Part shown: positions 3,783 through 21,190 of the stretch, one piece after another
Layout: the number at the start of each line of letters is the position of its first letter
Numbering within the stretch: position 1 is the first letter of the stretch
NCBI GenBank assembly: GCA_016280895.1
Contig: JAEEHM010000080.1
Location: 1,297-65,296 of the forward strand
DNA from: Bacillota bacterium
GTDB taxonomy: Bacteria; Bacillota_I; Bacilli_A; ML615J-28; CAG-698
Reading direction: 5' to 3'
DNA length: 64,000 nt
Program-made: the position numbers and the translations under genes
The notes under the pieces: generated by a model
The model's input: only the letters and a program-made list of their open reading frames with translations
Told to the model about the DNA's origin: nothing
Databases searched by the model: none

Positions 3783-5831
3783 TTATTGATTATCTTTTTT
3801 AGCATCATAGATATGGAATTCTTTCTTTTTATATCTATTAGGTACTATTTGGATATAGAATGGATAAAGTCTAAAATTAGATGATATTGTATTTACATAA
3901 GCTCTGATTTTATTTAGAGTTTTTTCCCAAAGATTTTGATTATTGTCTGTTAGTTTTATATAAAATACTAATATATGATTTTCTATATCCTTTTTCTTTT
4001 TTGTTCCAACAACAATATGTAAGATTTCATCTGATTCTTTTGCGATTTCAATGATTTTTTGAATTACTTCTTGATTTGTATATGGAAGTAGTTTTTCACC
4101 GTAATTAAAGCGTAGATTTAAATTATAAGTATCATCCATTTTCTTGAATGTATGTTTCTTTAATTCCTCTTTTTCATCTTTCATTCCCATGTATGTATAA
4201 TATTCAAGAAGAAGTCCATGAGCTTGAGCTCCTATTTCAGAATTATCTTTTTCTACATCTATTAAATATGAAAGACATGATGAATCTAAATCATTTTTAA
4301 ATAATAATAAACCTAAATAGAATTTTGCGATTAAATTATTTGAATCTTTTTCTAATATTTTTGAAAATATTTCTTTTGAAAATTCTAAATCAGCAAAATC
4401 TAGAGAATCTTGTGCGATTGCTGATAATTCATTAACATCTTCATCGTAATTGTTTTCGATTAACTTTTTCTTTTCTATTAAATATTTTGTTGCATAATAT
4501 TGGTTTTGATCTTTAAGATTATTTAATGCGATATGGTCTTTTTGTAAATCATTATTTAATTCTTTGACATAATTATTGATATCTTCATCAAATTCTGTAT
4601 TTAAGATCAATTCTTTATCTATAACTTTACCTGTATCAAATTTTTCTAATCTTTGTTTGATGGTAGGGTGAGTTATGATAATAGGTGATAGATAGTTTTT
4701 ACTTGCATATGTGAAGAAATCTAAATGTTTGTAGTAATATGATTTTATTAGATTTAGCTTGATATTCAATAATTCTTCATCAAATTTTAATTCTTTAGTA
4801 AAATAAATATAATAATCTAAGTAAGAAACATTTTGACAAGATAAATCAAGTCCAAATATTTTAAAACTAGCATCGGAATATGCAGGTGCTAATCCTTTTT
4901 CTAATACTAGATCATCAGCCTTATGTTCGAATAGAACATTTGTAGCTTCTTTCAACATTTCGGATTCAATCGCAATTTTACCTAGATTAGGTGTTAAAAC
5001 ACTAAAATTAGATGGCGATAAATAATCTAATCTATTAATATATTTATACATTTCTGCTGATTTTGAAGTGTCTTTATTCTTGTAATGTGCAATTTCATGA
5101 TATATGATTGATTTTATTTCTTCAGTATTTAAGAATTTTAAAATGATATAAGAAATATTAATACCAATTTTATTCTTTATTTCATATATTCCAGCATTAC
5201 AATCATTTGTGATATTAATGATTATATCTTTATTTATTCCTTCTTTTTTAAATTCTTCAATTATTAGTTTTGATAAATTAGGATATAAATCATGATTGTT
5301 CTTGATAGATTGAATGTTGAATAATTTTAATAGCGCTCTGAAAATATAGCTGAATGCGATAGAAAAAATTACCATTACTGAAACAGAAATGACTGTTATG
5401 TATACAGCATTGTAATCAAATTCTTCTGATAATCTTGTTAGTACATGATAATTTAGCCCAAACATCAACATTGTGGAAAAGATAAATATGTGTGAGATGA
5501 TTGCTGTATAATATTCTTTCTTATAATTCTTTATTAGCTTTTCTTGTATTTCTTCAGTTTTAGTATTTAATTCTTTAATGCTGACAAGTTCTTGAAAAGC
5601 CTCGCTTGGCTTTATCTTATTCATCTTTTTAGTATTGTGTGTTTGTATTCCTCCATTGGCAAATATTAATACTAAAAATAATAAATGCATTATTATTGAT
5701 ATTATTGTGATAACATTATTATCAATATTAAAGAAATATGATAATAATATTCCTATTACATAAGGAATTGATGTTAAGATTAATGCTAATATAGCAGCAA
5801 TGATTATTTTTAATATTTTTAGTGCTTTCAT
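3783..5831 (-). CDS. Polytopic membrane zinc-metalloprotease-like protein (M48/M56-like HExxH) with helical-repeat C-terminal domain
   Basis: Several N-terminal TM helices. HEIAH motif in IIYHEIAHYKNKD. TPR-like C-terminal region (AKFYLGLLLFKNDLD...). Confidence 0.6.
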   Translation of the reverse strand: MKALKILKIIIAAILALILTSIPYVIGILLSYFFNIDNNVITIISIIMHLLFLVLIFANGGIQTHNTKKMNKIKPSEAFQELVSIKELNTKTEEIQEKLIKNYKKEYYTAIISHIFIFSTMLMFGLNYHVLTRLSEEFDYNAVYITVISVSVMVIFSIAFSYIFRALLKLFNIQSIKNNHDLYPNLSKLIIEEFKKEGINKDIIINITNDCNAGIYEIKNKIGINISYIILKFLNTEEIKSIIYHEIAHYKNKDTSKSAEMYKYINRLDYLSPSNFSVLTPNLGKIAIESEMLKEATNVLFEHKADDLVLEKGLAPAYSDASFKIFGLDLSCQNVSYLDYYIYFTKELKFDEELLNIKLNLIKSYYYKHLDFFTYASKNYLSPIIITHPTIKQRLEKFDTGKVIDKELILNTEFDEDINNYVKELNNDLQKDHIALNNLKDQNQYYATKYLIEKKKLIENNYDEDVNELSAIAQDSLDFADLEFSKEIFSKILEKDSNNLIAKFYLGLLLFKNDLDSSCLSYLIDVEKDNSEIGAQAHGLLLEYYTYMGMKDEKEELKKHTFKKMDDTYNLNLRFNYGEKLLPYTNQEVIQKIIEIAKESDEILHIVVGTKKKKDIENHILVFYIKLTDNNQNLWEKTLNKIRAYVNTISSNFRLYPFYIQIVPNRYKKKEFHIYDAKKDNQ

Positions 5832-7991: not shown

Positions 7992-8579
7992 ATGAAGGAC
8001 AAATTAAATGATTTTGTGAACAAAAACAATGGTTATCTTATTTCTGCTTATGCGAGAGAAGAAGGTTTTTCAAGACAATATATTTCTTATTATGCTAGAA
8101 AAAACAACTTAGAAAGAGTTGCAGAAGGTATTTATATTACAGAAGATACATGGCCAGATTATTTATATATTTCACAATTACGAAATGAAGAAGTTGTGTT
8201 TTCATTTGAAACGGCATTATATCTTCATGGTTTAATGGACAGAGAACCTACTTTTACTAGTGTGTCTGTTAATTATGGTTATAACGCAATGCATTTAAAG
8301 AATAAGGGATTCAAAGTTCATACTTCTATTACAGATATTTATAATATTGGGATTGAGACTGTTGAAACACAATTTGGAAATGTTGTTAAAACATATGACA
8401 TGGAAAGAACAATTTGCGATATTATTAAATATAAAAAATATATGGATATTCAAGTGTTCACTACAGCATTGAAAGAATATGTAAAAAGTGATAATAAACG
8501 TATTCCTGTCTTAATGGATTATGCAAAAAAATTGAAGGTTGAAGATAAAGTTAAAGATTATTTTGAGGTGTTATTGTGA
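7992..8579 (+). CDS. abiEi: Type IV toxin-antitoxin AbiEi-family antitoxin / transcriptional repressor
   Basis: N-terminal wHTH pattern (NNGYLISAYAREEGFSRQYISYYARKNNLERVAEGIY). 4-nt overlap (GTGA) with the downstream AbiEii reading frame. Confidence 0.75.
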   Translation: MKDKLNDFVNKNNGYLISAYAREEGFSRQYISYYARKNNLERVAEGIYITEDTWPDYLYISQLRNEEVVFSFETALYLHGLMDREPTFTSVSVNYGYNAMHLKNKGFKVHTSITDIYNIGIETVETQFGNVVKTYDMERTICDIIKYKKYMDIQVFTTALKEYVKSDNKRIPVLMDYAKKLKVEDKVKDYFEVLL

Positions 8580-9415
8580 TTGTTAGCACTCCACAATTAA
8601 AAGCAAAAATAAGAAAACTATCAGATGGTAATAGTGACAAGTCACAAGCTTTGCTTAGAACATTTTTTATGGAAAGATTTTTGGAAAGGCTATGCAACTC
8701 TGATTATAAAAATAACTTCTATTTAAAAGGAGGCATACTTGTCTCATCATTATTGGGACTTGATGTACGTTCAACAATGGATATTGATACAACAATTTCC
8801 GAATTTAATCTAGATCATGAAACTACTAAACGCGTTATCGAAGAAATAATAAATATTGATATTAATGATGGGGTTACATTTGAAATAATTAAAGAAGCAA
8901 AAATAATGGATGAAGCTGACTATCCTGGCATTCGCTTCACGTTACAAGCAAATTTTGAAAAGATTAAACAAAAAATAAAAATCGATATTTCAACAAGTGA
9001 TATTATTACACCATCAGCAATTGAATATAATTATAAATTAATGTTGTAAGATAAGACTATTCAATTGAGATCTTATAATATTGAAACTTTATTAGCAGAA
9101 AAAATAGAAACAATAATGGCTAGAGGAACAACAAACACAAGAATGCGAGATTTCTATGATATATACCAAATATATATGCAAAGAGAAGATTCTATTTCTT
9201 TTAACTTATTGAAGAAAGCTTTTGAAAATACTAGTAAAAGAAGAAAATCATATAATTTATTTTCAAATATTGAAAATATATTATATGATATTCAACAAAA
9301 CGAAGAGATGATGTTAAATTGGGAAAATTATAAAAATGATTCTTATTATGTTGGTGAATTAAGTTGGAAAGAAGTGAACGAAACAATTCAAATTGTAATT
9401 AAAAAAATGAAATAA
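8576..9415 (+). pseudogene. abiEii: AbiEii/AbiGii-family nucleotidyltransferase toxin interrupted by one in-frame TAA (9047-9049)
   Basis: ORFs 8576-9049 and 9065-9415 are in the same frame (...KLML*DKTIQLRSYNIE...). N-terminal part has FMERFLERL...FYLKGG...STMDIDT. C-terminal part has LLAEKIETIMARGTTNTRMRDFYDIY. Confidence 0.75.
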
Positions 9416-9435
9416 TAATTGAGAAGGAGAAGAAA

Positions 9436-9969
9436 GTGAAGACAATATGTGGATCAAGCTGTTCAATTATTGATATGGCAGGTGATTTTTATGAAGCTTA
9501 TAATAGATGTGTCGAAAATAAAAATGTAAGAAATAATGGATTCGGAACAACAATTGCTGATGTAGTTAATGTTCCTGCAATAGTTAATGGAGCTTTTGCA
9601 ATTGAATTATACTTAAAAAGTATGATAGATCCAAAGAAAATTGAGAACAAGAGAATTCACAATTTAAAAAGGCTTTATTCTTTTTTGAAAAAGGAAGAAA
9701 AGAATGAACTAGAGAAAAGAATATGTGAAGAACTTTTAAAAATGAATTGGCAAATAAATAATGACACATTACAAGCAAATAGAAAATCTAGTACCGAAAA
9801 AGATATATTTGAAATATGCTTGAAAGGTATTAGCGAAGCTTTTGCTTATTGGAGATATATTTTTGAAAAGAAAAACACAGGGTTTGGTTTTCTTAATACA
9901 TTAAATGTGCTCCCAGTATTTTTAAAAAATATAAAAGTTTTTGCAGAAGAAAAAAATGGTAGATTGTAA
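9436..9969 (+). CDS. Hypothetical protein, possibly HEPN-like
   Basis: GTG start with RBS gaaggag. Helical pattern AFAIELYLKS...RIHNLKRLY...AYWRYIFE resembles HEPN-type helices by eye only. Confidence 0.4.
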   Translation: MKTICGSSCSIIDMAGDFYEAYNRCVENKNVRNNGFGTTIADVVNVPAIVNGAFAIELYLKSMIDPKKIENKRIHNLKRLYSFLKKEEKNELEKRICEELLKMNWQINNDTLQANRKSSTEKDIFEICLKGISEAFAYWRYIFEKKNTGFGFLNTLNVLPVFLKNIKVFAEEKNGRL

Positions 9970-10042
9970 ATAAAAATTGATAATAATTGAATAAATGATT
10001 GATTAAAACGAAGAGATATGATAAAATAATATTGATCAATGA

Positions 10043-10099
10043 GTTGGTGTACTGCTGGGTGGTGGCCTTTGGGTTGCAGCAGAGCCAACTTTTCTTTTT
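10043..10099 (+). terminator. GC-rich hairpin plus T-run terminator
   Basis: gttggtgtactgctg ... cagcagagccaac followed by ttttcttttt. Confidence 0.7.
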
Positions 10100-10114
10100 G
10101 TATAAACTCTAAAA

Positions 10115-10135
10115 CGAAACAAAATGTTTCGAAAT
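10115..10135. repeat. 21-bp palindrome-containing repeat cgaaacaaaatgtttcgaaat (copy 2)
   Basis: Identical to 7867-7887. Confidence 0.9.
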
Positions 10136-10223
10136 ATGCGTTTTTTGATATAGTATCTTTTTAAAAATGGTCTGTCAAAAACTATGGTGAAAACTATTTA
10201 ACATTACTTTTAAAAAAATTCGA

Positions 10224-10252
10224 TTGATAAATTGAGTGCTATATGATATAAT
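10224..10252 (+). promoter_or_regulatory. Sigma-A-type promoter of the HTH gene
   Basis: ttgata, 17 nt, tataat. Confidence 0.6.
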
Positions 10253-10292
10253 GATATTGCCCTATAATGTAGGGCGTTCAAGGAGAATACAT

Positions 10293-10595
10293 ATGAGCGA
10301 ATTCATCAACAATTTAAAAAAGCATGCTGTTAGAATAGAAGTACAACTTCCTGAAATCGATAAAGATTTTGTGAAAAGATTGAGAATCAGTTTAAATATG
10401 AGTCAATCATTATTTGCAAGTTATTTAGGAGTTACTAAAAAAGCTATTGAGAAATGGGAACAAGGTGTTAATAAAATAAAGGGAACAGCTAAGGTTTTAT
10501 TGTATCTGATAAATGATGATCCTAATATTCTTTCAAAAATAGCAAAAGTAGAATATAATGGCGAAAAACATGAATATAAGAAGGAGGCTATATAA
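10293..10595 (+). CDS. XRE/YiaG-type HTH protein (antitoxin-like, no toxin partner seen)
   Basis: RBS aaggag plus ATG at 10293; the upstream extension from 10236 covers the promoter. LRISLNMSQSLFASYLGVTKKAIEKWEQGVNKIKGTAKVLL is the YiaG/HigA-like HTH pattern. Confidence 0.7.
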   Translation: MSEFINNLKKHAVRIEVQLPEIDKDFVKRLRISLNMSQSLFASYLGVTKKAIEKWEQGVNKIKGTAKVLLYLINDDPNILSKIAKVEYNGEKHEYKKEAI

Positions 10596-10686: not shown

Positions 10687-10715
10687 ATTGACTATTTAAA
10701 TAAAGCAGAGTATAA
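10687..10715 (+). promoter_or_regulatory. Consensus promoter driving a short structured transcript
   Basis: ttgact, 17 nt, tataat. Confidence 0.6.
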
Positions 10716-10777
10716 TTAGCAATGCATACATTAATGATGCAATATTATTTGTATGCGCGTTTAAGGAGGTGGTAATC

Positions 10778-10861
10778 ATGAAAAGCCTTATTAAGGCGAT
10801 TATGATAATGGTACAGGGCCCAGAGTTGCATCGCTGTCCACCTCCAATAGCTATTTTATAA
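10778..10861 (+). CDS. 27-codon small ORF (MKSLIKAIMIMVQGPELHRCPPPIAIL) whose SD can be sequestered by its own 3' end
   Basis: SD ggaggtgg (10765-10772) sits 5 nt before the ATG and is perfectly complementary to ccacctcc (10838-10845) inside the ORF. Coding status is unproven. Confidence 0.3.
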   Translation: MKSLIKAIMIMVQGPELHRCPPPIAIL

Positions 10862-10879: not shown

Positions 10880-10909
10880 TTGACAACAATTACATTTATT
10901 TGATATAAT
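10880..10909 (+). promoter_or_regulatory. Promoter P1 (extended -10) for riboswitch 1
   Basis: ttgaca, 18 nt, tgatataat. Confidence 0.65.
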
Positions 10910-10928
10910 ACTAATGTAAATATAAGTT

Positions 10929-11017
10929 AATAGCAAAACACGGGAAACTGTGTGACGCAAAACTATAGGGTCTGAAATGATAGCCAGTTGCCAAATATAT
11001 TGGAAACTGGTTTTTTT
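10929..11017 (+). promoter_or_regulatory. c-di-GMP-I (GEMM-I) riboswitch 1 with intrinsic terminator
   Basis: agcaaaa, then cacgg-GAAA-ctgtg hairpin, then GACGCAAAACTATAGGG, TCTGAAA, TAGCCAGTTGCC. Terminator stem ccagttgcca / tggaaactgg (1 mismatch) plus T7. A second hairpin, ttttttgtaaca/tgttacaaaaaa, lies at 11012-11036. Confidence 0.8.
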
Positions 11018-11080
11018 GTAACATTTGTTACAAAAAAGAAAGATCGTGTTAAAAAATATTAAAAAAATTAAAAATATTTA

Positions 11081-11109
11081 TTGACAATATTTATAAAATA
11101 TGGTAAAAT
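11081..11109 (+). promoter_or_regulatory. Promoter P2 (extended -10) for riboswitches 2 and 3 and the operon
   Basis: ttgaca, 17 nt, tggtaaaat. Confidence 0.65.
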
Positions 11110-11142
11110 ATTGTTGTAAATTAAAAATAGTACTACAAGTGC

Positions 11143-11235
11143 TAAAGGCAAAGCAAGAGAAATCTTGTGACGCAAAGCTATAGGGCCTGAAATGGTAGCC
11201 AGTTGTCATTTGATGTTGACAGTTGGCTTTTTTTG
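11143..11235 (+). promoter_or_regulatory. c-di-GMP-I (GEMM-I) riboswitch 2 with intrinsic terminator
   Basis: AAAGGCAAAG, then caaga-GAAA-tcttg, then GACGCAAAGCTATAGGGCCTGAAATGGTAGCCAGTTGTC. Terminator gccagttgtca / tgacagttggc (2 G-U pairs) plus T8. Confidence 0.85.
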
Positions 11236-11277
11236 TTCCTTATAGAATTTAAAAAGCTAGCCAAAGGTTTTTAATGT

Positions 11278-11367
11278 TAAAGGCAAAGCAAGAGAAATCT
11301 TGTGACGCAAAGCTATAGGGCCTGAAAATGGTAGCCAGTTGTCATTGATAGACAACTGGCGTTTTTT
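11278..11367 (+). promoter_or_regulatory. c-di-GMP-I (GEMM-I) riboswitch 3 with intrinsic terminator
   Basis: Near-identical to riboswitch 2 over about 68 nt, with one extra A. Perfect terminator stem gccagttgtc / gacaactggc plus gTTTTTT. Lies 45 nt upstream of the 11413 start. Confidence 0.85.
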
Positions 11368-11412
11368 ATACCCCTGCAATATTTGAGAAGAGAGAAAGGA
11401 AGGTAATTAGTT

Positions 11413-12259: not shown

Positions 12260-13054
12260 ATGAAAAAATTTACTACAAAATTATTAATGTCTATTATTGC
12301 TGTTGCTTTTGCTTTCGTAGCATTAGGAACTTCTACTTATGCATGGTTCTCAATGAACACTGAAGTTACAGTTACTGGTATGCAAGTTGTTGCAAAATCA
12401 GATAACACTTATTTATTAATTGGTGATGGTGAAAATAACACTGCTGCTAAAATTCAAGGATTAGAAACTGCTGTTACAGTTGATCTTGCAATTTCTGATG
12501 ATGATTCTAAAGTATATCCAAGTGCACCAAAAACTGCTGACGACATTGGAGAAGGCAAAAAATTTGCTGATGGCACAGCTGTAACTGATGCTACATCTGC
12601 TGCTGCTTTTGCTAACTGGTATACTGCAAATGCTGAAAAATCAAGTGAAGCTACAATGAAAGCTGGAACTGCTAAATCATTAACAAAATTTGATGGTTAT
12701 GTATTAGTAAAGACTGTATATTTAACTGTAGCTAAAGGTGCTAACCCTGCTAAAGCTTTAACTGCAACTGCTACTTTTGCTCAAAAAGGTGAAGGAAATG
12801 ATTTATCTGCTGCAAGAGTTCTTGTTACAACTGATTTAGGCGCTGGAGGAATGGCAGTTTTATCATCAACAAATGCTTCAAATGTTGCAATCGCACCTGC
12901 TGATGCTGAAATCACTGAAAATACACTTGTAACTGTAAATCTTTACATTTACGTTGACGGAAATGACAGCAAAATTTTCACTAACAATACAGCTAATTTA
13001 AAAGGTGCTACTATTTCATTAGCATTTAATGTTAGTTCAGTACCTGCTGCTTAA
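12260..13054 (+). CDS. TasA/camelysin-family protein with SipW-cognate signal peptide (putative major fibre subunit)
   Basis: RBS aaaggag. MKKFTTKLLMSIIAVAFAFVALGTSTYAWFSMN matches the SipW-dependent signal class (G-T-x-A-x-F-[NST]). Ala/Thr-rich and Cys-free. C-terminal LKGATISLAFNV. Followed by a hairpin. Confidence 0.65.
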   Translation: MKKFTTKLLMSIIAVAFAFVALGTSTYAWFSMNTEVTVTGMQVVAKSDNTYLLIGDGENNTAAKIQGLETAVTVDLAISDDDSKVYPSAPKTADDIGEGKKFADGTAVTDATSAAAFANWYTANAEKSSEATMKAGTAKSLTKFDGYVLVKTVYLTVAKGANPAKALTATATFAQKGEGNDLSAARVLVTTDLGAGGMAVLSSTNASNVAIAPADAEITENTLVTVNLYIYVDGNDSKIFTNNTANLKGATISLAFNVSSVPAA

Positions 13055-13087
13055 TAAAGCAACAAATATTTAACGATATTTAATTTT

Positions 13088-13120
13088 ACGCCTAGGCGAA
13101 AACCTAGGCGTATATTTATA
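13088..13120 (+). terminator. Hairpin (attenuator or terminator) after the putative major subunit gene
   Basis: acgcctagg-cgaaaa-cctaggcgt followed by a weak T-tract. An extended -10 (tggtaatat, 13187-13195) follows. Confidence 0.55.
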
Positions 13121-13236
13121 TAAAACATTAATATGTGAAAATATAACAATTATTTTTCATAAAATATAGATTTTTTGTTAAAAATGTGGTAATATATGTT
13201 ATATAACTATGCTTATAAGATATATGAGGTGAATAT

Positions 13237-14127
13237 ATGGAAAATACTAAACAAATGAACCCAAAAGTAAAGAAAATATTAAGTATTGTATTTAATGTTT
13301 TATTTTATGCTTTCTTAGTATTGTTATTTGCATTTTCAATCAGTAATATTAGAAGTAGAAAAAATAATATTCCAAACATCTTTGGTGTTGGATATTTGCA
13401 AGTCCAATCAGGATCAATGACCGGCACTTTCGAAAAAGGAGATTTTATTTGGGTTAAAATTGCAAACGATAAAAAAATAGATAAACTTGAGATTGGAGAT
13501 ATAATTACTTTCTATGATCCTGCGATTTCTGAATCTATCGTGAATGCTGGTGGTGAAGATGATGGAACATCATTGAATACCCATAGAATCGTTGATATTA
13601 AAGAGATGGATGATGGATCATTACGATATATTTGCCAAGGTGATTATGTAAAAATTTCATTTCCAGCCAATGTTTATGATTCATCAAAATCAAGTAATAC
13701 TATGATTCAAATAGTTACAAAGGATAATATTCGTGCTATCTACACAAGCAATATGGGTAAAGGCATGACTGGCATCTTAAAGTTTGCTAAGTCAAGTTTA
13801 GGATTTGGATTATGTATTGTACTTCCAACTGCATTATTATTAGTTTATGAAGTTGTAATGTTAATTAGAAACATTATGAAGTTAAATAAAGAGAAGTTAG
13901 AAGCTCAAATGGCTGAAACACAAGCTGCTCAACAAGAAGATTTAGAAGCTCAAAAACAAAGAATGAGAGAAGAATTACTTGCTGAATTAAGAGCAGAACA
14001 AGCTAAATCAAATGAAGCTCAAGAAGCACAAGTAGAAAATGTTCAAGAAGAAAAAACATCTGAAGATGTTCCTGAAGAACAACCTGTTGAAGAAGAAAAA
14101 GTAGAAGAAAATAAAGAAGAAAATTAA
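13237..14127 (+). CDS. sipW: SipW-type (S26B, archaeal/ER-type) signal peptidase I with C-terminal TM and charged coiled-coil/acidic tail
   Basis: N-terminal TM. Catalytic Ser box QSGSMTGTF, His box NTHRIVDI, CQGDY. Second TM LGFGLCIVLPTALLLVYEVVMLI, then about 85 aa of E/Q/K-rich tail ending ...KTSEDVPEEQPVEEEKVEENKEEN. Confidence 0.75.
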   Translation: MENTKQMNPKVKKILSIVFNVLFYAFLVLLFAFSISNIRSRKNNIPNIFGVGYLQVQSGSMTGTFEKGDFIWVKIANDKKIDKLEIGDIITFYDPAISESIVNAGGEDDGTSLNTHRIVDIKEMDDGSLRYICQGDYVKISFPANVYDSSKSSNTMIQIVTKDNIRAIYTSNMGKGMTGILKFAKSSLGFGLCIVLPTALLLVYEVVMLIRNIMKLNKEKLEAQMAETQAAQQEDLEAQKQRMREELLAELRAEQAKSNEAQEAQVENVQEEKTSEDVPEEQPVEEEKVEENKEEN

Positions 14128-14147
14128 TTTAGTAACGAGGTGAAAGG

Positions 14148-15713
14148 ATGACAGAGTTCGCAAGATATTACGTAACTTTCTTAAGGGAATTATTCTCTAA
14201 TATATGGGATTTCATTAAGACATTATTTGGTGCCTTTGCGAATCTTCTATATTATGACATTAAAGACTATTTTAATATATTAGTTAATGCAAGTAATGGA
14301 TTTAACATCCTTGACTGGATTGTATTTGTATTTGTATTAATTATTAATGTTTCATTTATTGCTTTAATTGTAATAAGAATTGCTCAAGCAATAAGACGTC
14401 ATCATAAAAATAGAAAGAAAGATGCTGAAAAAGCAGAATTGTTAGAAGAAATAGCTGGACTAAATTATAAAGTTGAAGAATTAATTAATGAAAAAAATCA
14501 ATTGTTTGCTATGAAAGTTTCATCATTAGGTTTGCGTGCTAATGGTACTGTACCAGTTGAAGGTGGAGGATCATCAACTGAAAGAGGTGGTAAACCTGGT
14601 GAAGATAAGAAACTAAAAGCTGGTGAATCAAGATTCGTTAAATTAATCAATGTAGATAAAGACTACAATAAAGTTGCTATCATCACAAACATGGGTGAAG
14701 CTGATATGGTTAACTTGCCAGAATTAGTAGATAGATTTGTAAACTTCAGTGCTAGCCAATTGAAATTATTCTATGAAAAGAAATTAATTGCTATTTGGTT
14801 TGCTGGACTTGCAACATCTAAGATTTTAATTCTTGAAGGTATATCTGGTACTGGTAAAACATCACTACCATATGCTATGGGTAAGTTCTTCCAAAACGAT
14901 GCTGCTATCGTTTCAGTACAACCATCTTGGAGAGATAGAGCTGAAATCATTGGTTATTTAAATGAATTCACTAAGAGATTTAATGAAACAGATTTCTTAA
15001 AAGCATTATATGCTACTACATATCGTGATGATATTAATATCATCATCCTCGATGAAATGAACTTAGCACGTATTGAGTATTATTTTGCTGAATTCTTATC
15101 AATCATGGAAATGCCAGATGTCAATGAATGGAAGATTGATATCGTTCCTGATTCATTAAGTACAGACCCAGTTAATATTGTAAATGGTAAATTATTAGTA
15201 CCACAAAATGTTTGGTTCATTGGTACAGCCAATAAGGATGATTCAACATTCACAATTACTGATAAGGTATATGACCGTGCTACTGTTTTAGAGATGAACT
15301 CAAAAGCTAAATATATTGATGCAGCATTTACACCAGCTATCAATATGACTTATGAATACTTAGATAATCTATTCAAGAAAGCTTTGGAAGAACATCCATT
15401 ATCTTCTAAATCACTTGATAACTTAGCTAAGGTTGATAAGTTCATTGCTGCTAATTTCAAGATTACATTTGGTAACCGTATTCTTAAACAAATCAAGATA
15501 TTCGTACCTGTATTTGTAGCTTGTGGATTTAGTGAAACAGAAGCTATTGATTATTTCTTAGCTTATAAGATTATTAGAAAATTTGAAAGTTTAAATCTAT
15601 CATTCTTACATAATGAATTAAACGAATTGATATCTGTATTAGATAAGATATACGGCAAGGGTGCATGTGAAGAATGTATTTCTTGTATTAAAGACTTTAT
15701 TAAGAATTCATAG
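14148..15713 (+). CDS. Membrane-anchored McrB-family (AAA+ GTPase) protein
   Basis: TM ILDWIVFVFVLIINVSFIALIVI, a short coiled coil and a Gly-rich linker. Walker A EGISGTGKTS, Walker B IIILDEMNLARIEYYFAEFLS. FIGTANKDDS aligns with McrB IGLMNTADRS, giving the NxxD motif NKDD. Confidence 0.7.
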   Translation: MTEFARYYVTFLRELFSNIWDFIKTLFGAFANLLYYDIKDYFNILVNASNGFNILDWIVFVFVLIINVSFIALIVIRIAQAIRRHHKNRKKDAEKAELLEEIAGLNYKVEELINEKNQLFAMKVSSLGLRANGTVPVEGGGSSTERGGKPGEDKKLKAGESRFVKLINVDKDYNKVAIITNMGEADMVNLPELVDRFVNFSASQLKLFYEKKLIAIWFAGLATSKILILEGISGTGKTSLPYAMGKFFQNDAAIVSVQPSWRDRAEIIGYLNEFTKRFNETDFLKALYATTYRDDINIIILDEMNLARIEYYFAEFLSIMEMPDVNEWKIDIVPDSLSTDPVNIVNGKLLVPQNVWFIGTANKDDSTFTITDKVYDRATVLEMNSKAKYIDAAFTPAINMTYEYLDNLFKKALEEHPLSSKSLDNLAKVDKFIAANFKITFGNRILKQIKIFVPVFVACGFSETEAIDYFLAYKIIRKFESLNLSFLHNELNELISVLDKIYGKGACEECISCIKDFIKNS

Positions 15714-15738
15714 ATTTCTATGAATTCTTTTATTTTTT
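15702..15738 (+). terminator. Perfect 11-bp hairpin plus T-run overlapping the stop of the McrB-like gene (intra-operon attenuator?)
   Basis: aagaattcata-gatttc-tatgaattctt followed by ttattttttgg. Only 27 nt remain before the next start, so there is no room for a promoter. Confidence 0.6.
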
Positions 15739-15764
15739 GGTAAAGTAAAGAAAGGAGAAAAGGC

Positions 15765-18587
15765 ATGAAAAAGGATCAATTAGCAAACAAACAAAAGATC
15801 AATGATGATGTAACGAAATATTCTCAAAAATTAGATTATGCTTTATTTAATCTAAATAATGAAGACTTCTATAAATATTTTGAAAATGCCTTTTTGAATG
15901 GTGATAGAACACTTTATCAAAAAAACATTTCCGAAGCAAAAACATTTGATGATACATGGATTAAAACAGTTGAATCTTATTTTCCTAGTATAGATAAAAT
16001 CACTAGAGAACCTAAATCAATTTTAAGATATGATGAAGATATTGTTGCAGTAGAAAGAGCTAAAAAGACAAGTGCTAAATCAGTTAGACATTTAGCTAGT
16101 CATACTGAGAATATCAGAGATATTGATGAGAATAATTATGTTACTCCAAAGAAGGTTTTAATTGAAATACCTGAACAAGAATATGCTATTTATGAAAATA
16201 GATTTATTAAAACATTAATTAATCGTTTATATTTGTTTGTGAAGAATAGATATGAAATCATTAAGAATAATGTTGAATCTTTCCAAAAAGATCGATTATC
16301 AGGTACTGCTAATTTTGATTTTAATGATACTAAGGTTGAATTAAGTGTTGATTTAACTATCACTAAGGACTTAGATGATAAGAAGATCAATGAACATAAT
16401 TATGATTTGTTGGCTAGAACTGAGAAATTAAATTATTTGATTACTGGTTTAAAGAATTCACAATTCATGAAGATGTTGAAGAATGCACCTGCTGTGCATC
16501 CTCCTATCATGAAAACAAATATCATCATGAAGAATCCAGAATTTAGAAATGCGTATAACTTATGGATCTTCTTAGATAAATATTCTATTTTAGGTTATGA
16601 TGTAACTATTAGAGAAAAAGATCTTGAATTTGATGATGGATTCATTGATGATATCAATCATATGTTTGCAACTAACTATGCAATTATATTAGGTAATCAA
16701 TTAAATAGATTAGAAAAATATAATGTTCCTGATGGATATCAAGAATTAATAAAGAAGAAAACTAAGATCGTTAGTCAAAATCCTAAAGATTTTGTACCTA
16801 ATCCAGATTTAATTGAAATGGAAGAAAGTCATTTAAATGAATTCTTCTTACAAAAATATAAAGAATTATTGGATTCTGGTATTAATAAGGAAACTAAGAA
16901 TGAATTCTTAGATGAACCTAATGATGCGATTATTAAACGTAATGTTCGTCAAACTACTGATATTGTGAATGCATTGTATGATGCTAAATTTGAAATATCA
17001 GAAGAGGCTGATATCTTACATAGACTAGAAGATACTGACTTAGAAAAAGAATATCAAAGATCTCTTGAACAATTACGTTATGCTAAAATTATTAGAGAGG
17101 TTAAAGAAGTCGATTACAACAATTTCTTTAGAACTGAAAGAAGATTACTTCGTGCTCTTTCTAAAACTAATACTGAGATGATTAAGAAATTAATCGAAGA
17201 AAGAAAGTATGAAGAAAAAGAAAGAAAGATTAAAGAAATTGAAGCAAAGATAGATGCATTAAAGAAAGAGAATGAAGAAAGAAGCAAACAAATAGATGCT
17301 TTAAACGATCATCAAACTTTAATGAAAGAAGAGAAACAAAGACTTATTGATGAGAGAAATAAGACTATCAATAAGGTTGATGAAGAGATGAAGAAGTACG
17401 ATCAAATGATGGAAGCTAAGTACGAAGAAGAAAGACAAAAAGTACTTGCTCAATTACAAGCTGAAAAAGAACGTGCTAAAGAACTTAAGGCTTTAGAAGA
17501 TGAGGCTAAGAAATATCGTAAGCAAGCTCTAAACGATATGATTGCGGAAGAACGTGCTAAAGCTCAAGAAGAAATGGAAGCTAAGTTCAAACTTCATCGT
17601 GAAGAAATGGAAGCTGCACTTAATGATATTAGAGATATCGCTATTAGATATCAAGAAAAGATTCAAAGTGAAGTTGAAAGAAGAGAATTAGAGAACAGTC
17701 AAAAAGAAAAAGAAGCTATTGCAATCTTTAAAGTTAGCAAATATGAAGAAGCTTTGGAACAAAAGAACAAAATTGAACTTGAAAGTGCTGAGGCTGCTTA
17801 TAATAAGGCTCTTGCTGAAAAGCAAGCTAAGATTGATGCTAAGACTGAACTTGATAATAAATTGAAGGAATTAGATGATGAATATCAAAACAGATTATCA
17901 TCTAAATTACAAGATTTAGAAGCTGAATATAATGAAGCTATGGCTCAAGTAATTGAGAAACCAGAAATCTTAGAAGAACAAGAAGTTGAAGATCAAACAT
18001 CTGACGATGTTCTAGATGATGCTGAAATTCAAGAAAAGGTAGCTTCTGATTTAGCAAGACTTCAAAGTATTGAAGAAGAAGAGAGAAAGCAAGAAGAAGA
18101 AAGATTAAAAGCTGAAGCAATAGAGGTTGAAAAACTAGAAGCATTAAAAGAAGCTGAAGCTGCTAGACTTCAAGAAGAAGCATTTGAAGCAAAGAGACAA
18201 GAAATTGAAGCTGAATTAAATAATTCTTATGATAATTCATTAGAAGAAGAAAAGCAAAAACAAATCAATTTAAATGCTATCCAAAGAGAAAAAGAAGCAA
18301 AAGCTATTTCTTTAGTTCAATCTTATGAAAAAGGTAAGAAGGATGAAGAAGCTTTAGCTTTAAAAGAAGAGGAAGAAAAAGCTCTTGCTGAACAAAAGCG
18401 TTTAGATGCTTTAAAATTTGAAGAAGATCAAAAGCGAATTGAAGCACAAATTGAAGAGCAAGCAAGACTTGAAGAAAAGAAGCAACAAATCAAATTAAAT
18501 GCAATTCAAAGAGAAAAAGAAAATAAAGCAATCTCTCTAGTTCAAGAATATGAGAATAAAAGAGATGCAAAATCTATTGAAAGATAA
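15765..18587 (+). CDS. McrC N-terminal-domain-like (DUF2357-like) protein fused to a ~600-aa E/K/A-rich coiled coil; no nuclease motif recognised
   Basis: RBS aaaggag. YAIYENRFIKTLINRLYLFV resembles the McrC/DUF2357 ..ENR.iK..L.. segment. Residues from about 340 to 940 are heptad-like E/K/A/L. Contains the internal repeat Q(I)xLNAIQREKExKAISLVQxYE. Confidence 0.45.
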   Translation: MKKDQLANKQKINDDVTKYSQKLDYALFNLNNEDFYKYFENAFLNGDRTLYQKNISEAKTFDDTWIKTVESYFPSIDKITREPKSILRYDEDIVAVERAKKTSAKSVRHLASHTENIRDIDENNYVTPKKVLIEIPEQEYAIYENRFIKTLINRLYLFVKNRYEIIKNNVESFQKDRLSGTANFDFNDTKVELSVDLTITKDLDDKKINEHNYDLLARTEKLNYLITGLKNSQFMKMLKNAPAVHPPIMKTNIIMKNPEFRNAYNLWIFLDKYSILGYDVTIREKDLEFDDGFIDDINHMFATNYAIILGNQLNRLEKYNVPDGYQELIKKKTKIVSQNPKDFVPNPDLIEMEESHLNEFFLQKYKELLDSGINKETKNEFLDEPNDAIIKRNVRQTTDIVNALYDAKFEISEEADILHRLEDTDLEKEYQRSLEQLRYAKIIREVKEVDYNNFFRTERRLLRALSKTNTEMIKKLIEERKYEEKERKIKEIEAKIDALKKENEERSKQIDALNDHQTLMKEEKQRLIDERNKTINKVDEEMKKYDQMMEAKYEEERQKVLAQLQAEKERAKELKALEDEAKKYRKQALNDMIAEERAKAQEEMEAKFKLHREEMEAALNDIRDIAIRYQEKIQSEVERRELENSQKEKEAIAIFKVSKYEEALEQKNKIELESAEAAYNKALAEKQAKIDAKTELDNKLKELDDEYQNRLSSKLQDLEAEYNEAMAQVIEKPEILEEQEVEDQTSDDVLDDAEIQEKVASDLARLQSIEEEERKQEEERLKAEAIEVEKLEALKEAEAARLQEEAFEAKRQEIEAELNNSYDNSLEEEKQKQINLNAIQREKEAKAISLVQSYEKGKKDEEALALKEEEEKALAEQKRLDALKFEEDQKRIEAQIEEQARLEEKKQQIKLNAIQREKENKAISLVQEYENKRDAKSIER

Positions 18588-18605
18588 TGCATAATTTGTA
18601 TGAAT

Positions 18606-18640
18606 AAGCAACTTGTGTATTTATCAAGTTGCTTATTTTA
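18606..18640 (+). terminator. Hairpin plus short T-tract between the coiled-coil gene and sipW2
   Basis: aagcaacttg-tgtatttat-caagttgctt then atttta. Confidence 0.55.
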
Positions 18641-18659
18641 ATTAAAAAAGGAGGTAATT

Positions 18660-19340
18660 ATGGAAAATGTCAAAAAAGATAATTCGAAAATATCAAAAAG
18701 AATTATAACTATTTTTGCATGGGTAATTACTGCCTTACTTAGTTTAATGGTTATATTGCTGTTGGTATTTGGTCTTAGTTCAATCAAACAAGGAAAGATG
18801 GTAAAAATATTTGGTTATTCATATTCTGTTATTGTATCAGAATCTATGGTACCAACAATCAATGTCAGTGATATTATTATCATCAACACTAAATATGAAT
18901 TTGAAGATGTTAAAAAAGATGATATTATCGTATTTTATAATCCAAATGAACAAAAGAATATTGCTCATAGAGTTGTAGATATTTTAGAAGATGGTAGCCT
19001 ACAAACATGTGGTGATAACAATAATGGTCTTGTTGATGGATTCCATGTTACTGAAGAATATTATATTGGTAAAGTAACAAAATACGGACATTTCTTAGGT
19101 CTTGGTTCATTAATGATGAACGGACGTGTTGTTTTCTTTATTGCACTTGCTGCGATATTCATGTATATTATTGTTACAGAAGCAATCAATATTTATAAGA
19201 TGAGCATGAAGAAGAAACACGAAGATAAGATGAAAGAAATTGAAGATAATAAGAAAAAACAAGAAGATGAATTACGTGCTCAATTAAAAGCAGAATTATT
19301 GAAAGAACTTGAAAATGAGAAAAACAAACTTTCCAATTAG
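18660..19340 (+). CDS. sipW: Second SipW-type signal peptidase I with C-terminal TM and K/E-rich tail
   Basis: RBS aaaggagg. VSESMVPTI (Ser box), IAHRVVDI (His box), TCGDNNNG. TM VVFFIALAAIFMYIIVTEAI, then a charged tail. Confidence 0.8.
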   Translation: MENVKKDNSKISKRIITIFAWVITALLSLMVILLLVFGLSSIKQGKMVKIFGYSYSVIVSESMVPTINVSDIIIINTKYEFEDVKKDDIIVFYNPNEQKNIAHRVVDILEDGSLQTCGDNNNGLVDGFHVTEEYYIGKVTKYGHFLGLGSLMMNGRVVFFIALAAIFMYIIVTEAINIYKMSMKKKHEDKMKEIEDNKKKQEDELRAQLKAELLKELENEKNKLSN

Positions 19341-19950: not shown

Positions 19951-20026
19951 AGTGTATAAAATATACACTTTTTGTTGACATATTACGTCAGAAAGGAGTA
20001 TAATAAAAGTGTATAAAATATACAGT
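19951..20026 (+). promoter_or_regulatory. Promoter sandwiched by two copies of a 19-bp palindromic operator
   Basis: agtgtataaaatatacact (19951-19969, perfect palindrome); ttgaca (19975-19980), 18 nt, tataat (19999-20004); agtgtataaaatatacagt (20008-20026). Confidence 0.65.
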
Positions 20027-20038
20027 AAGGAGACGTTT

Positions 20039-21190
20039 ATGTTAGAGAAAATTATTATCAATAATATCAATTCTATTAAAAATGCCGAAATAGACTTTAA
20101 AAAAGGAAGTTACAAATTTGGCGAAGACAATATTGTTGAAAACATTGTAAATCCTATGGCCTTATATGGTCATAATGGTAGTGGTAAAACTTCTGTATTT
20201 CTTGCATTGGATAGTTTAATAAAGATTATGAATCAAGCAAGTGTAGAATTGCGCCCTTTTGTTGTTAATTATTTTCTTTATAATAAATATCAACAGGCGA
20301 AAGAGAATGAAAGAAACGAAGACGATATCAGTGGTTCTATTACTTTAAGCTTTTCTTTAAATAATGATAATTATGAATATTTTATTTCTACATCAATGTT
20401 AGCTTATATTAGAAAGGAATATTTAAAATTTAATTCTAAGATTATTTTTGAAAGAAATAAGGAAGGAAGCACTTATAATGGTAAATATGTGTCATTTGAT
20501 GGTAATTATAATCTTGTGCCTATGCTTAGAAGTTTGGCATCGTCAGAGATCAACAATCAAATAATACAGGATGCATATTCATACATTAGCTCTTTTACTT
20601 TCTTGAGCCTTCCACAAATTAATAAGGGATACTTTGTTACTTCAAAGGTGTTCAATAATATCGGTTATGCTGATTTGTTAGTAAAAAAAGCAGAGGAAAT
20701 TGAAAACATTTTAAAGACATATAAGGAATTCCCTGTCTTTAAAGTAAAGAAGAAAAGTGAATTAGTTGGTATCAATGCGCCTATATCTCAATTTGTGTTT
20801 GAAATACAGGATGGTTCCTTCAAAGGAGAATTACCATTTTCTTTATTATCTGCTGGTATGAGAAATCAAGCAATTCTATTATCAATTCTTGTATCCATCC
20901 CTGAAAATAGTGTGGTATTTGTAGACGAATTAGAACAAGCATTGCATCCAAGTGCAATAAAATCTTTTTTAGAAGTTGTAAAAAAGAAAAAAATTCAATT
21001 AGTTTTCTCTTCACATAATACATATATCCTACAAATGTTAAGACCTGACCAAGTATATTTTACTCATTGGCATGAAGGTTTTTCAAAGTGTTCACGCTTA
21101 TCTAAGATATATCCTAATATTCGTGAAATCAATAACATAGAAAAAATGTACTTGTCATCAGTATTTGATGAGGCCATAAAGAATGGATAA
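20039..21190 (+). CDS. Stand-alone AAA15/AAA21-type ATPase (defence-associated family; partner gene absent)
   Basis: RBS aaggag plus ATG at 20039; the listed GTG at 20009 lies inside the operator. Walker A GHNGSGKTS, VFVDELEQALHP, FSSHNTYIL. Confidence 0.7.
   Translation: MLEKIIINNINSIKNAEIDFKKGSYKFGEDNIVENIVNPMALYGHNGSGKTSVFLALDSLIKIMNQASVELRPFVVNYFLYNKYQQAKENERNEDDISGSITLSFSLNNDNYEYFISTSMLAYIRKEYLKFNSKIIFERNKEGSTYNGKYVSFDGNYNLVPMLRSLASSEINNQIIQDAYSYISSFTFLSLPQINKGYFVTSKVFNNIGYADLLVKKAEEIENILKTYKEFPVFKVKKKSELVGINAPISQFVFEIQDGSFKGELPFSLLSAGMRNQAILLSILVSIPENSVVFVDELEQALHPSAIKSFLEVVKKKKIQLVFSSHNTYILQMLRPDQVYFTHWHEGFSKCSRLSKIYPNIREINNIEKMYLSSVFDEAIKNG

Follow-up and report, generated by a model that had tools for sequence, protein, structure and literature searches.

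The question raised by the stretch of DNA described here is whether three copies of one riboswitch, set in series ahead of an operon for putative secreted proteins, work as separate switches of that operon, in which direction they would turn it and which signal they would read. The stretch, called the window below, comprises 64,000 nucleotides (nt) of contig JAEEHM010000080.1 from a Bacillota bacterium, and the region in question spans positions 10880-11412. An earlier note on this DNA had described the region as a triple tandem of class I riboswitches (c-di-GMP-I, or GEMM-I) for cyclic diguanosine monophosphate. In our reading it is probably the leader of an operon for secreted proteins and SipW-like peptidases, and contains three independent transcription-terminating c-di-GMP-I riboswitches that would act as ON switches.

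Three aptamers and the terminators that share their strands

The full window was searched with cmscan against Rfam 15 at gathering thresholds; the gathering score of RF01051, the c-di-GMP-I family, is 35 bits. Three matches to RF01051 are the only Rfam matches in the whole 64 kb. All are on the forward strand and full-length, with model positions 1-87 matched throughout, and their scores of 61-64 bits are well above the gathering score. The GEMM-I cores proposed previously, at 10929-10992, 11143-11207 and 11278-11343, are each enclosed by one of these matches, and the three units are genuine members of RF01051. In the list of open reading frames (ORFs), none longer than 43 amino acid residues (aa) crosses the region. 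The coordinates of the features are collected in Table 1.

Riboswitch 3 is a duplicate of riboswitch 2 at an offset of 135 nt. From positions 11143 and 11278 onward the two aptamers (11143-11210 and 11278-11346) are identical except for one additional A in the loop of helix P3, in agreement with the recent duplication suggested by the earlier note. Aptamer 1 has 82% identity to aptamer 2 over 66 nt and is, as had also been suggested, the diverged copy.

The fold consists of two hairpins, P2 with a GNRA cap and P3 with an AG bulge, and is supported by compensatory changes. Among 45 distinct aptamers of the operon family, 98% of the cells pair and 12 of the 17 pairs have double-sided changes; none of 500 shuffles reached the observed covariation values, and slid controls collapse. 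The P2 stem of aptamer 1 in the window and in two related loci, L082 and L085 (the L numbers designate related loci throughout), is represented by the compensatory pairs ACACGG/CTGTGT, GCAAGA/TCTTGT and GCACAG/CTGTGT. The P2 loop is GAAA in all three window aptamers. The segments GACGC-A and AGCC are unchanged in the three copies, which thus retain the intercalating A47 and the interhelical pair C44-G83. Compared with Vc2 of V. cholerae, the reference GEMM-I structure, the window aptamers have the same GNRA hairpin at P2, GACGCAAA junction, AGCC bulge, G14-C93 pair atop helix P1 and 5-nt linker before position 20. However, Vc2 has a G20/C92 pocket and a longer P3, while P3 of the window aptamers is one pair shorter and has a 3-nt bulge.

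The segment GCCAGUUG(C/U)C(A..) is used twice in each unit. In the aptamer it provides the 3' strand of helix P3, positions 91-93 and the start of the 3' strand of helix P1. The same segment is also the 5' arm of the terminator hairpin of that unit, with a U-run after the hairpin. In terminator T1 the 5' arm, GCCAGUUGCC, is the P3 3' strand of aptamer 1 together with positions 91-93, and in T2 it is made of the P3 and P1 3' strands of aptamer 2. The terminator scan missed T1 because of an internal mismatch in the hairpin; for T3 it gave 10 pairs, six of them G-C. A separate intrinsic terminator is found after each of the three aptamers. The earlier note had already described the 3' segment of the aptamer as the 5' arm of a terminator, and the calculated folds agree with this in all three units. 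In about 30 related loci a terminator reusing the aptamer 3' strand follows nearly every aptamer, and the 3' arms differ between genera.

Since the strand is shared, aptamer and terminator are mutually exclusive. In the minimum free energy (MFE) structures calculated with ViennaRNA, the terminator is present in every unit (-24.9, -32.7 and -36.4 kcal/mol for units 1, 2 and 3). Enforcing the aptamer helices costs 9.4, 9.9 and 13.7 kcal/mol, respectively, and abolishes the terminator. Since ligand binding must pay this cost, read-through is expected when the ligand is present. In its absence the terminator, being more stable, would form and RNA polymerase would stop; with ligand, the aptamer would be locked, the terminator could not nucleate and transcription would read through. 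The ON logic put forward earlier is supported by the terminator in the MFE structures, by the aptamer cost of 9-14 kcal/mol and by the precedent of Bc3-5, from which we infer the direction. An OFF switch was considered and rejected, the 5' arm of the terminator being the aptamer strand itself and not its complement. In this respect the window differs from Vc2, which has been reported as an OFF switch or as a stabilizer of a small RNA (sRNA), while the window platforms are predicted ON terminators.

Bc3-5 is a triple tandem c-di-GMP-I riboswitch upstream of cspABCDE in B. thuringiensis CT-43, and was shown to switch ON, with a more digital response for the triple (Zhou et al. 2016, PMC4759541). 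Both arrays have three complete, highly similar GEMM-I units in series, with their own terminators, upstream of genes for cell-surface proteins (putative ones in the window), and in both the 5' arm of the terminator holds position 92, the P1 3' strand and part of P3. ON switching was shown for Bc3-5 and is predicted for the window array. The differences are also clear. Bc3-5 is described as one 5' untranslated region, whereas the window has a conserved sigma-70-type promoter between units 1 and 2. In the window, position 20 is A in unit 1 and position 92 is U in units 2 and 3. The window belongs to a low-GC metagenome-assembled genome (MAG) of an uncultured Bacilli or Acholeplasma-like host and has an operon of SipW type, while that of Bc3-5 encodes LPXTG surface proteins.

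The arrangement had been called rare but precedented. The B. thuringiensis array is indeed a precedent, but the arrangement is less rare than that wording suggests. In a survey of tandem riboswitches, c-di-GMP-I is the most frequent tandem class known, 347 of its arrays being doublets and 12 triplets (Sherlock et al. 2022, PMC9481103), and arrays in the clade of the window reach four copies. The window array resembles those of the survey in its riboswitch class and in the pseudo-cooperative series with multiple expression platforms. In that survey nothing beyond triplets is given for c-di-GMP-I, while L013, a relative of the window locus, reaches four.

The extent of such arrays was determined with a covariance model built from the three window aptamers and run on 91 related loci. 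It gave 47 + 20 matches, almost all no more than 400 nt upstream of the gene homologous to the first gene of the operon, and Rfam confirmed those matches that were re-checked. In Acholeplasma-like Bacilli this operon family is as a rule preceded by a tandem array of 2-4 GEMM-I copies: many loci have two copies, L011 has three and L013 four. When 17 Clostridia loci of greater distance were scanned with Rfam for c-di-GMP-II or other riboswitches upstream of the homologues, the only one present was a single GEMM-I, in L044.

Some individual loci of this survey may be described. In L013 (Acholeplasmataceae MAG JAIOQX010000003.1, 3392-3920) the RF01051 aptamers are located at 3444, 3569, 3699 and 3820, each with its own terminator; a single promoter lies upstream of all four and the homologous gene downstream. 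The 78%-identity relative represented by L088, L089 and L090 has, at 2318-2480, two aptamers separated by only 5 nt, without an intervening terminator, and a single terminator after the second. The first of these aptamers (A20/C92) falls under the Rfam gathering score. This pair may be a design of two aptamers with one platform, or the upstream copy may be decaying. In L037, a sheep-rumen Clostridia MAG, the aptamer at 1455-1532, which precedes the homologous gene, has its best match to RF03167, the c-di-GMP-I-GGC variant (59.6 bits, where the gathering score is 59), and a canonical RF01051 aptamer is found in the same locus at 4197-4282.

Table 1. Features of the riboswitch array and of the operon downstream, in window coordinates
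Feature	Position	Strand	Description
Promoter P1	10880-10909	+	TTGACA, 18-nt spacer, TG-extended TATAAT; 12/12 consensus match
Riboswitch 1 aptamer (GEMM-I)	10922-10995	+	RF01051, 63.4 bits, E 4.5e-10
Terminator T1	10983-11017	+	Stem 10984-11010, U7 11011-11017; 5' arm GCCAGUUGCC; -10.5 kcal/mol
Palindrome GTAACATTTGTTAC	11018-11031	+	A6 run to 11037; T7 11011-11017 on 5' side; read from the sequence
Promoter P2 (internal)	11081-11109	+	TTGACA, 17-nt spacer, TG-extended TAAAAT; 11/12 consensus match
Riboswitch 2 aptamer (GEMM-I)	11137-11210	+	RF01051, 61.4 bits; helix P1 AAGUG/CAUUU
Terminator T2	11198-11234	+	Stem to 11227, U7 11228-11234; scan site 11197-11228; -13.2 kcal/mol
Riboswitch 3 aptamer (GEMM-I)	11272-11346	+	RF01051, 63.8 bits; helix P1 AAUG/CAUU
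Terminator T3	11334-11367	+	Hairpin 11334-11360, U6 11362-11367; GCCAGUUGUC / GACAACUGGC; -17.9 kcal/mol
Ribosome-binding site (RBS) AAAGGAAGG	11395-11403	+	Ahead of first regulated gene
First regulated gene, 239 aa	11413-12132	+	N-terminal transmembrane (TM) helix, beta-sandwich, WLEGWD motif
Rest of operon	12260-19340	+	Five genes; order kept in L001, L082, L085
264-aa secreted beta-sandwich protein	First gene of 12260-19340	+	TasA-like signal end LGTSTYAWFS; model pLDDT 80
SipW-like peptidase	13237-14127	+	NCBIfam TIGR02228 / NF046067 matches for the two peptidases; Pfam S26
521-aa protein	After first SipW-like peptidase	+	Weak AAA match
940-aa protein	After 521-aa protein	+	No family assigned
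Second SipW-like peptidase	18660-19340	+	TIGR02228, 1.5e-20; Pfam S26

Two predicted promoters and an apparently variable number of copies

A consensus scan recovers both promoters just where the earlier note had placed them. The predicted start of promoter P1 is at about 10916, immediately 5' of helix P1 of aptamer 1, and that of promoter P2 at about 11116, 20 nt ahead of aptamer 2. The closest view of their conservation comes from L082 and L085, metagenome contigs from other samples in which the 239-aa protein is 95% and 88% identical to that of the window. Both have the full layout of promoter P1, aptamer 1, T1, palindrome, promoter P2, aptamer 2, T2, aptamer 3 and T3 at the window offsets. 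In the three-way alignment both -35 hexamers, the TG-extended -10 elements and all terminators are kept. The hexamers and the TG are invariant for both promoters, while the spacers differ, that of promoter P1 being unrelated among the three sequences. The 3' arm of T1 in L082 and L085 also differs, yet it still pairs, with a shifted register, to the unchanged 5' arm. Together, the conserved promoters and terminators, the compensatory P2 stems and the re-pairing of T1 make a good case for selection on both promoters and on all three switches. Promoter P2 is kept in L001, L082, L083 and L085. No internal promoter was found in the arrays of other genera, which have one promoter per array, and promoter P2 is specific to the species group of the window.

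The retention of hexamers and TG beside diverging spacers points to an array of the form "1 + 2". The description of the locus as a triple tandem is correct insofar as three aptamers follow in series; they are probably not simply one leader because promoter P2 lies between aptamers 1 and 2. The array is best described as a double tandem driven by promoter P2, ahead of which lies one more unit with a promoter of its own. The two hairpins that had been noticed between copy 1 and promoter P2 are also present: the T1 hairpin (10984-11010) and the perfect palindrome GTAACATTTGTTAC (11018-11031). The latter, located between T1 and promoter P2, is kept in L082 and L085 without covariation. It could form an RNA hairpin, extendable by pairing of its A6 run with the preceding U7, or it could be a transcription-factor operator about 50 nt 5' of the -35 box of promoter P2.

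With two predicted sigma-70-type promoters feeding the array, transcripts from promoter P1 would pass all three riboswitches. Those from promoter P2 would pass riboswitches 2 and 3, and this should give a steeper, lower-leak and "more digital" response. The output of the operon could then be approximated by f2 × f3 × (P2 + P1 × f1), a formula that we infer from the layout.

The "1 + 2" form also permits the view, raised in part by the earlier note, that promoter P1, aptamer 1 and T1 produce a stand-alone RNA of about 100 nt, acting as a ligand-responsive sRNA or sponge, or serve as a read-through insulator, and that the operon is governed by promoter P2 and the double tandem only. The unit has a strong promoter and a terminator of its own, with a second promoter after it; an internal promoter occurs in the species group alone, other genera having one promoter per array; and for Vc2, control over the stability of an sRNA ending in the aptamer has been reported. 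However, the 5' arm of T1 overlaps the aptamer as it does in the downstream ON switches, so that the ligand should give read-through into promoter P2 and riboswitches 2 and 3. This is the behavior of a regulator rather than of a fixed sRNA, and we regard the stand-alone RNA as improbable. A different doubt concerns the third copy itself, which could have been created by the assembly from a true locus with two aptamers. With 99.7-99.97% identity to the window, L001 has exactly one 135-nt unit fewer (L001 2860-2934 against window 11137-11346), and the contigs of L084, L086, L087 and L091 end inside the array. But three independent assemblies from other samples argue against this: L082 and L085 have the full layout, and L083 has three aptamers after promoter P2 on a contig that starts just 5' of that promoter, which gives a total of at least three and possibly four. 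The differences between copies in these assemblies cannot come from mis-joining, and short-read assembly more usually collapses repeats than expands them. An artefact was therefore rejected, as these independent assemblies carry diverged copies, and we would give it hardly any chance. The two copies of L001, the three after promoter P2 in L083 and the broken contigs indicate either that the copy number is polymorphic or that short-read assemblies collapse the repeat.

The ligand pockets and the signal

The ligand contacts were mapped from the literature and aligned through the Rfam alignment, with G14, G21, C46, A47 and C92 as the key residues and A14 and G74-C75-C76 as the contacts in Gs1761. 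A47 lies 3 nt after C44, and G20 lies 27 nt before A47. Position 20, called from the covariance-model alignment, immediately precedes GCAAA on the 5' side. Following P3, the consensus reads "gCC"; its first C is position 92, and C93 pairs with G14, 5 nt before position 20. Aptamer 1 has A20 (10932), A47 (10959) and C92 (10991), with the equivalents of C44 and G83 at 10956 and 10983. Aptamer 2 has G20 (11147), A47 and U92 (11206), and aptamer 3 has G20 (11282), A47 and U92 (11342). The combination A20/C92 that characterizes GEMM-Ib is found in aptamer 1 only (A10932, C10991).

The A20 of aptamer 1 is kept in L001, L082 and L085, and the orthologues in L082 and L085 keep A20/C92. Elsewhere in the clade A20 is confined to L088-L090 and L045, again in the promoter-proximal aptamers. 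U92, in the form "GUC", is nearly invariant across many genera. The pocket types of the clade are G20/U92 (the majority), A20/C92 and G20/C92; A20/U92 was never seen.

Several points weigh against an array of c-di-GMP ON switches. The canonical pocket, G20 with C92, occurs in none of the three window aptamers. The G20A form of Vc2 binds c-di-GMP (53 nM) and 3',3'-cyclic GMP-AMP (cGAMP; 120 nM) about equally, and C92U lowers the in vivo response of Vc2 30-fold, with partial rescue by a cyclase. A motif search found no GGDEF, EAL or HD-GYP genes in the window. The calls of promoters and terminators are consensus and energy predictions, and the predicted role of the regulated proteins would depend on fold and sequence matches that are not significant. 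In addition, the host appears as an uncultured gut or rumen MAG, and the locus is known here from its sequence alone.

With no copy having the canonical G20/C92 pocket, c-di-GMP is the default ligand and not a proven one. The assignment of c-di-GMP by the earlier note is upheld by the RF01051 fold and weakened by the A20/C92 and G20/U92 pockets, and it stands as this default. The non-canonical pockets lower confidence in the ligand, not in the RF01051 fold. A single G20A or C92U change in Vc2 leaves some response to c-di-GMP. Smith and co-workers are said to have found in 2010 that G20A and C92U are the commonest natural variants of GEMM-I and still bind c-di-GMP. The riboswitch Cbe 1-2 of C. 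beijerinckii, a Firmicute, has A20 and is bispecific, accepting both c-di-GMP and cGAMP. Judged by these analogues, aptamer 1 is probably bispecific and aptamers 2 and 3 are probably of lower affinity. A canonical GGDEF diguanylate cyclase domain (GHEAGD...RIGGDEF, Pfam E 4.8e-24) is encoded at positions 1-534 of L002, 3.3 kb upstream of the orthologous operon; L002 is the closest relative (59% identity) among the genomes of species representatives in GTDB. The ligand is most probably c-di-GMP.

Two other assignments of the signal have to be compared with this one. Aptamer 1 might be a GEMM-Ib-type sensor of 3',3'-cGAMP while aptamers 2 and 3 sense c-di-GMP; expression from promoter P1 would then need both signals and that from promoter P2 c-di-GMP only. 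Aptamer 1 resembles GEMM-Ib of Geobacter (Gs1761) and Cbe 1-2 in having the G20-to-A substitution plus C92. The A immediately 5' of GCAAA, at position 20 of Vc2, is the known determinant of cGAMP acceptance. The window shares it with L001, L082 and L085 in aptamer 1, and the A20 aptamer is always promoter-proximal in three lineages (the window clade, L088-L090 and L045). The Firmicute precedent for A20, Cbe 1-2, accepts both ligands. However, cGAMP selectivity needs more than A20, which by itself gives bispecific and not cGAMP-selective riboswitches, as in Vc2 G20A and Cbe 1-2. The gene context of the window is not exoelectrogenesis. No cGAMP synthase of the DncV-like or Hypr GGDEF type was seen, the sole cyclase near a related operon has the canonical Asp, and three lineages are too few for "always first" to be significant. 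This division of signals is considered unlikely. It is also conceivable that all three aptamers, and with them the whole G20/U92 clade, sense 3',3'-cGAMP and not c-di-GMP. A20/C92 would then read A in the alpha position and G in the beta position, and G20/U92 would read G-alpha and A-beta through a U-A Watson-Crick pair. This would fit the occurrence of G20/U92, A20/C92 and G20/C92 but never A20/U92, since both variant pocket types are complementary to one G and one A. It would also fit the near invariance of U92 across many genera and the weakened c-di-GMP response of Vc2 C92U. But natural variants with G20A or C92U reportedly still bind c-di-GMP, canonical G20/C92 aptamers are found in the same arrays in L002 and L088, the canonical GGDEF gene neighbors the L002 operon, and our literature search found no experimental report of a G20/U92 cGAMP switch. 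A clade-wide response to cGAMP is very unlikely.

More generally, an array with two ligands or with a re-specified ligand, in which unit 1 with A20/C92 would accept cGAMP and the distal units have G20/U92, has a small probability as judged from the pockets. Should unit 1 sense 3',3'-cGAMP, with a CBASS-type or Hypr-GGDEF enzyme as one conceivable source, or should U92 prefer a dinucleotide that contains A, the array would be the first tandem in nature to integrate two cyclic dinucleotides on one operon, and G20/U92 would be a new specificity class across Acholeplasma-like Bacilli. The tandem table of the survey, as read here, lists no pair of c-di-GMP-I and c-AMP-GMP riboswitches within one array (PMC9481103).

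The regulated operon and its significance

The first gene downstream of the array codes for the 239-aa protein, which has no family match in Pfam or NCBIfam; its AlphaFold model has a pLDDT of 85.9. An identical protein is encoded on contig JAEEGK010016155.1 of GCA_016295295.1, and homologues occur in uncultured Bacilli, Acholeplasmataceae, Mariniplasma, Peloplasma and some Clostridia MAGs. The signal peptide of the 264-aa protein, with its end LGTSTYAWFS, recalls those of SipW substrates. Among the proteins of the operon, Pfam and NCBIfam recognized only the two SipW-like peptidases, besides weak AAA matches. With the 239-aa and 264-aa models, Foldseek searches of the PDB yielded nothing at E <= 1e-3. 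There were non-significant matches to pilins, archaeal bundling pili among them, with E of about 1e-3 to 5e-2 and TM-scores below 0.3. Profile searches of PDB sequences gave nothing meaningful, and TIGR04088, "SipW-dependent signal peptide", was touched by one of 28 homologues (E 0.009).

The earlier note had spoken of matrix genes. The two SipW-like peptidases and the beta-sandwich proteins with N-terminal signal or TM helices lend this weak support. However, there is no significant match to TasA or to any solved structure, and the label of TasA or matrix protein was dropped because the fold and profile searches gave nothing significant. The regulated products may reasonably be taken for secreted, SipW-processed proteins of the surface or of filaments.

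The flanks of the operon (7992-10595 and 20009-21190) carry genes of defence or toxin-antitoxin type. The upstream flank has AbiEi/AbiEii-like, HEPN and MqsA-like helix-turn-helix genes and the downstream flank an AAA_21 (AbiEii-type) ATPase; AbiE-like genes precede the operon in L082 and L085 too. Between the upstream flank and the array there is a promoter-like site at 10688-10716 (11/12), followed by a small ORF from the ATG at 10779 to 10861 (MKSLIKAIMIMVQGPELHRCPPPIAIL) with a strong RBS (AAGGAGGTGG). The segment GGAGGTGG (10765-10772) is complementary to CCACCTCC (10838-10845), so that the RBS of the small ORF could be sequestered. With its RBS hidden in this way, the small ORF would be reminiscent of type I toxins or of small regulatory peptides. 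The 285-nt segment with this ORF is absent in L082, where the upstream gene ends 24 nt before promoter P1.

Tandem c-di-GMP-I riboswitches ahead of an operon are an arrangement already documented. What is less ordinary here is the internal promoter, the mixed pockets, the apparent variation of copy number at the strain level, the relative with four copies and the SipW operon. The locus is an evolutionarily replicated example of riboswitch copy number tuned by tandem duplication, with near-identical strains that have two, three and possibly four copies and a related genus that has four, all on one operon family. It also puts, in Bacilli that are wall-less or Acholeplasma-like, an operon of SipW-type peptidases and beta-sandwich secreted proteins under predicted cyclic-dinucleotide control. 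Should the specificity or affinity of the A20 and U92 pockets prove to be altered, the array would form a natural device with multiple thresholds or two signals, and it could be a ready-made biosensor part, as Bc3-5 already is.

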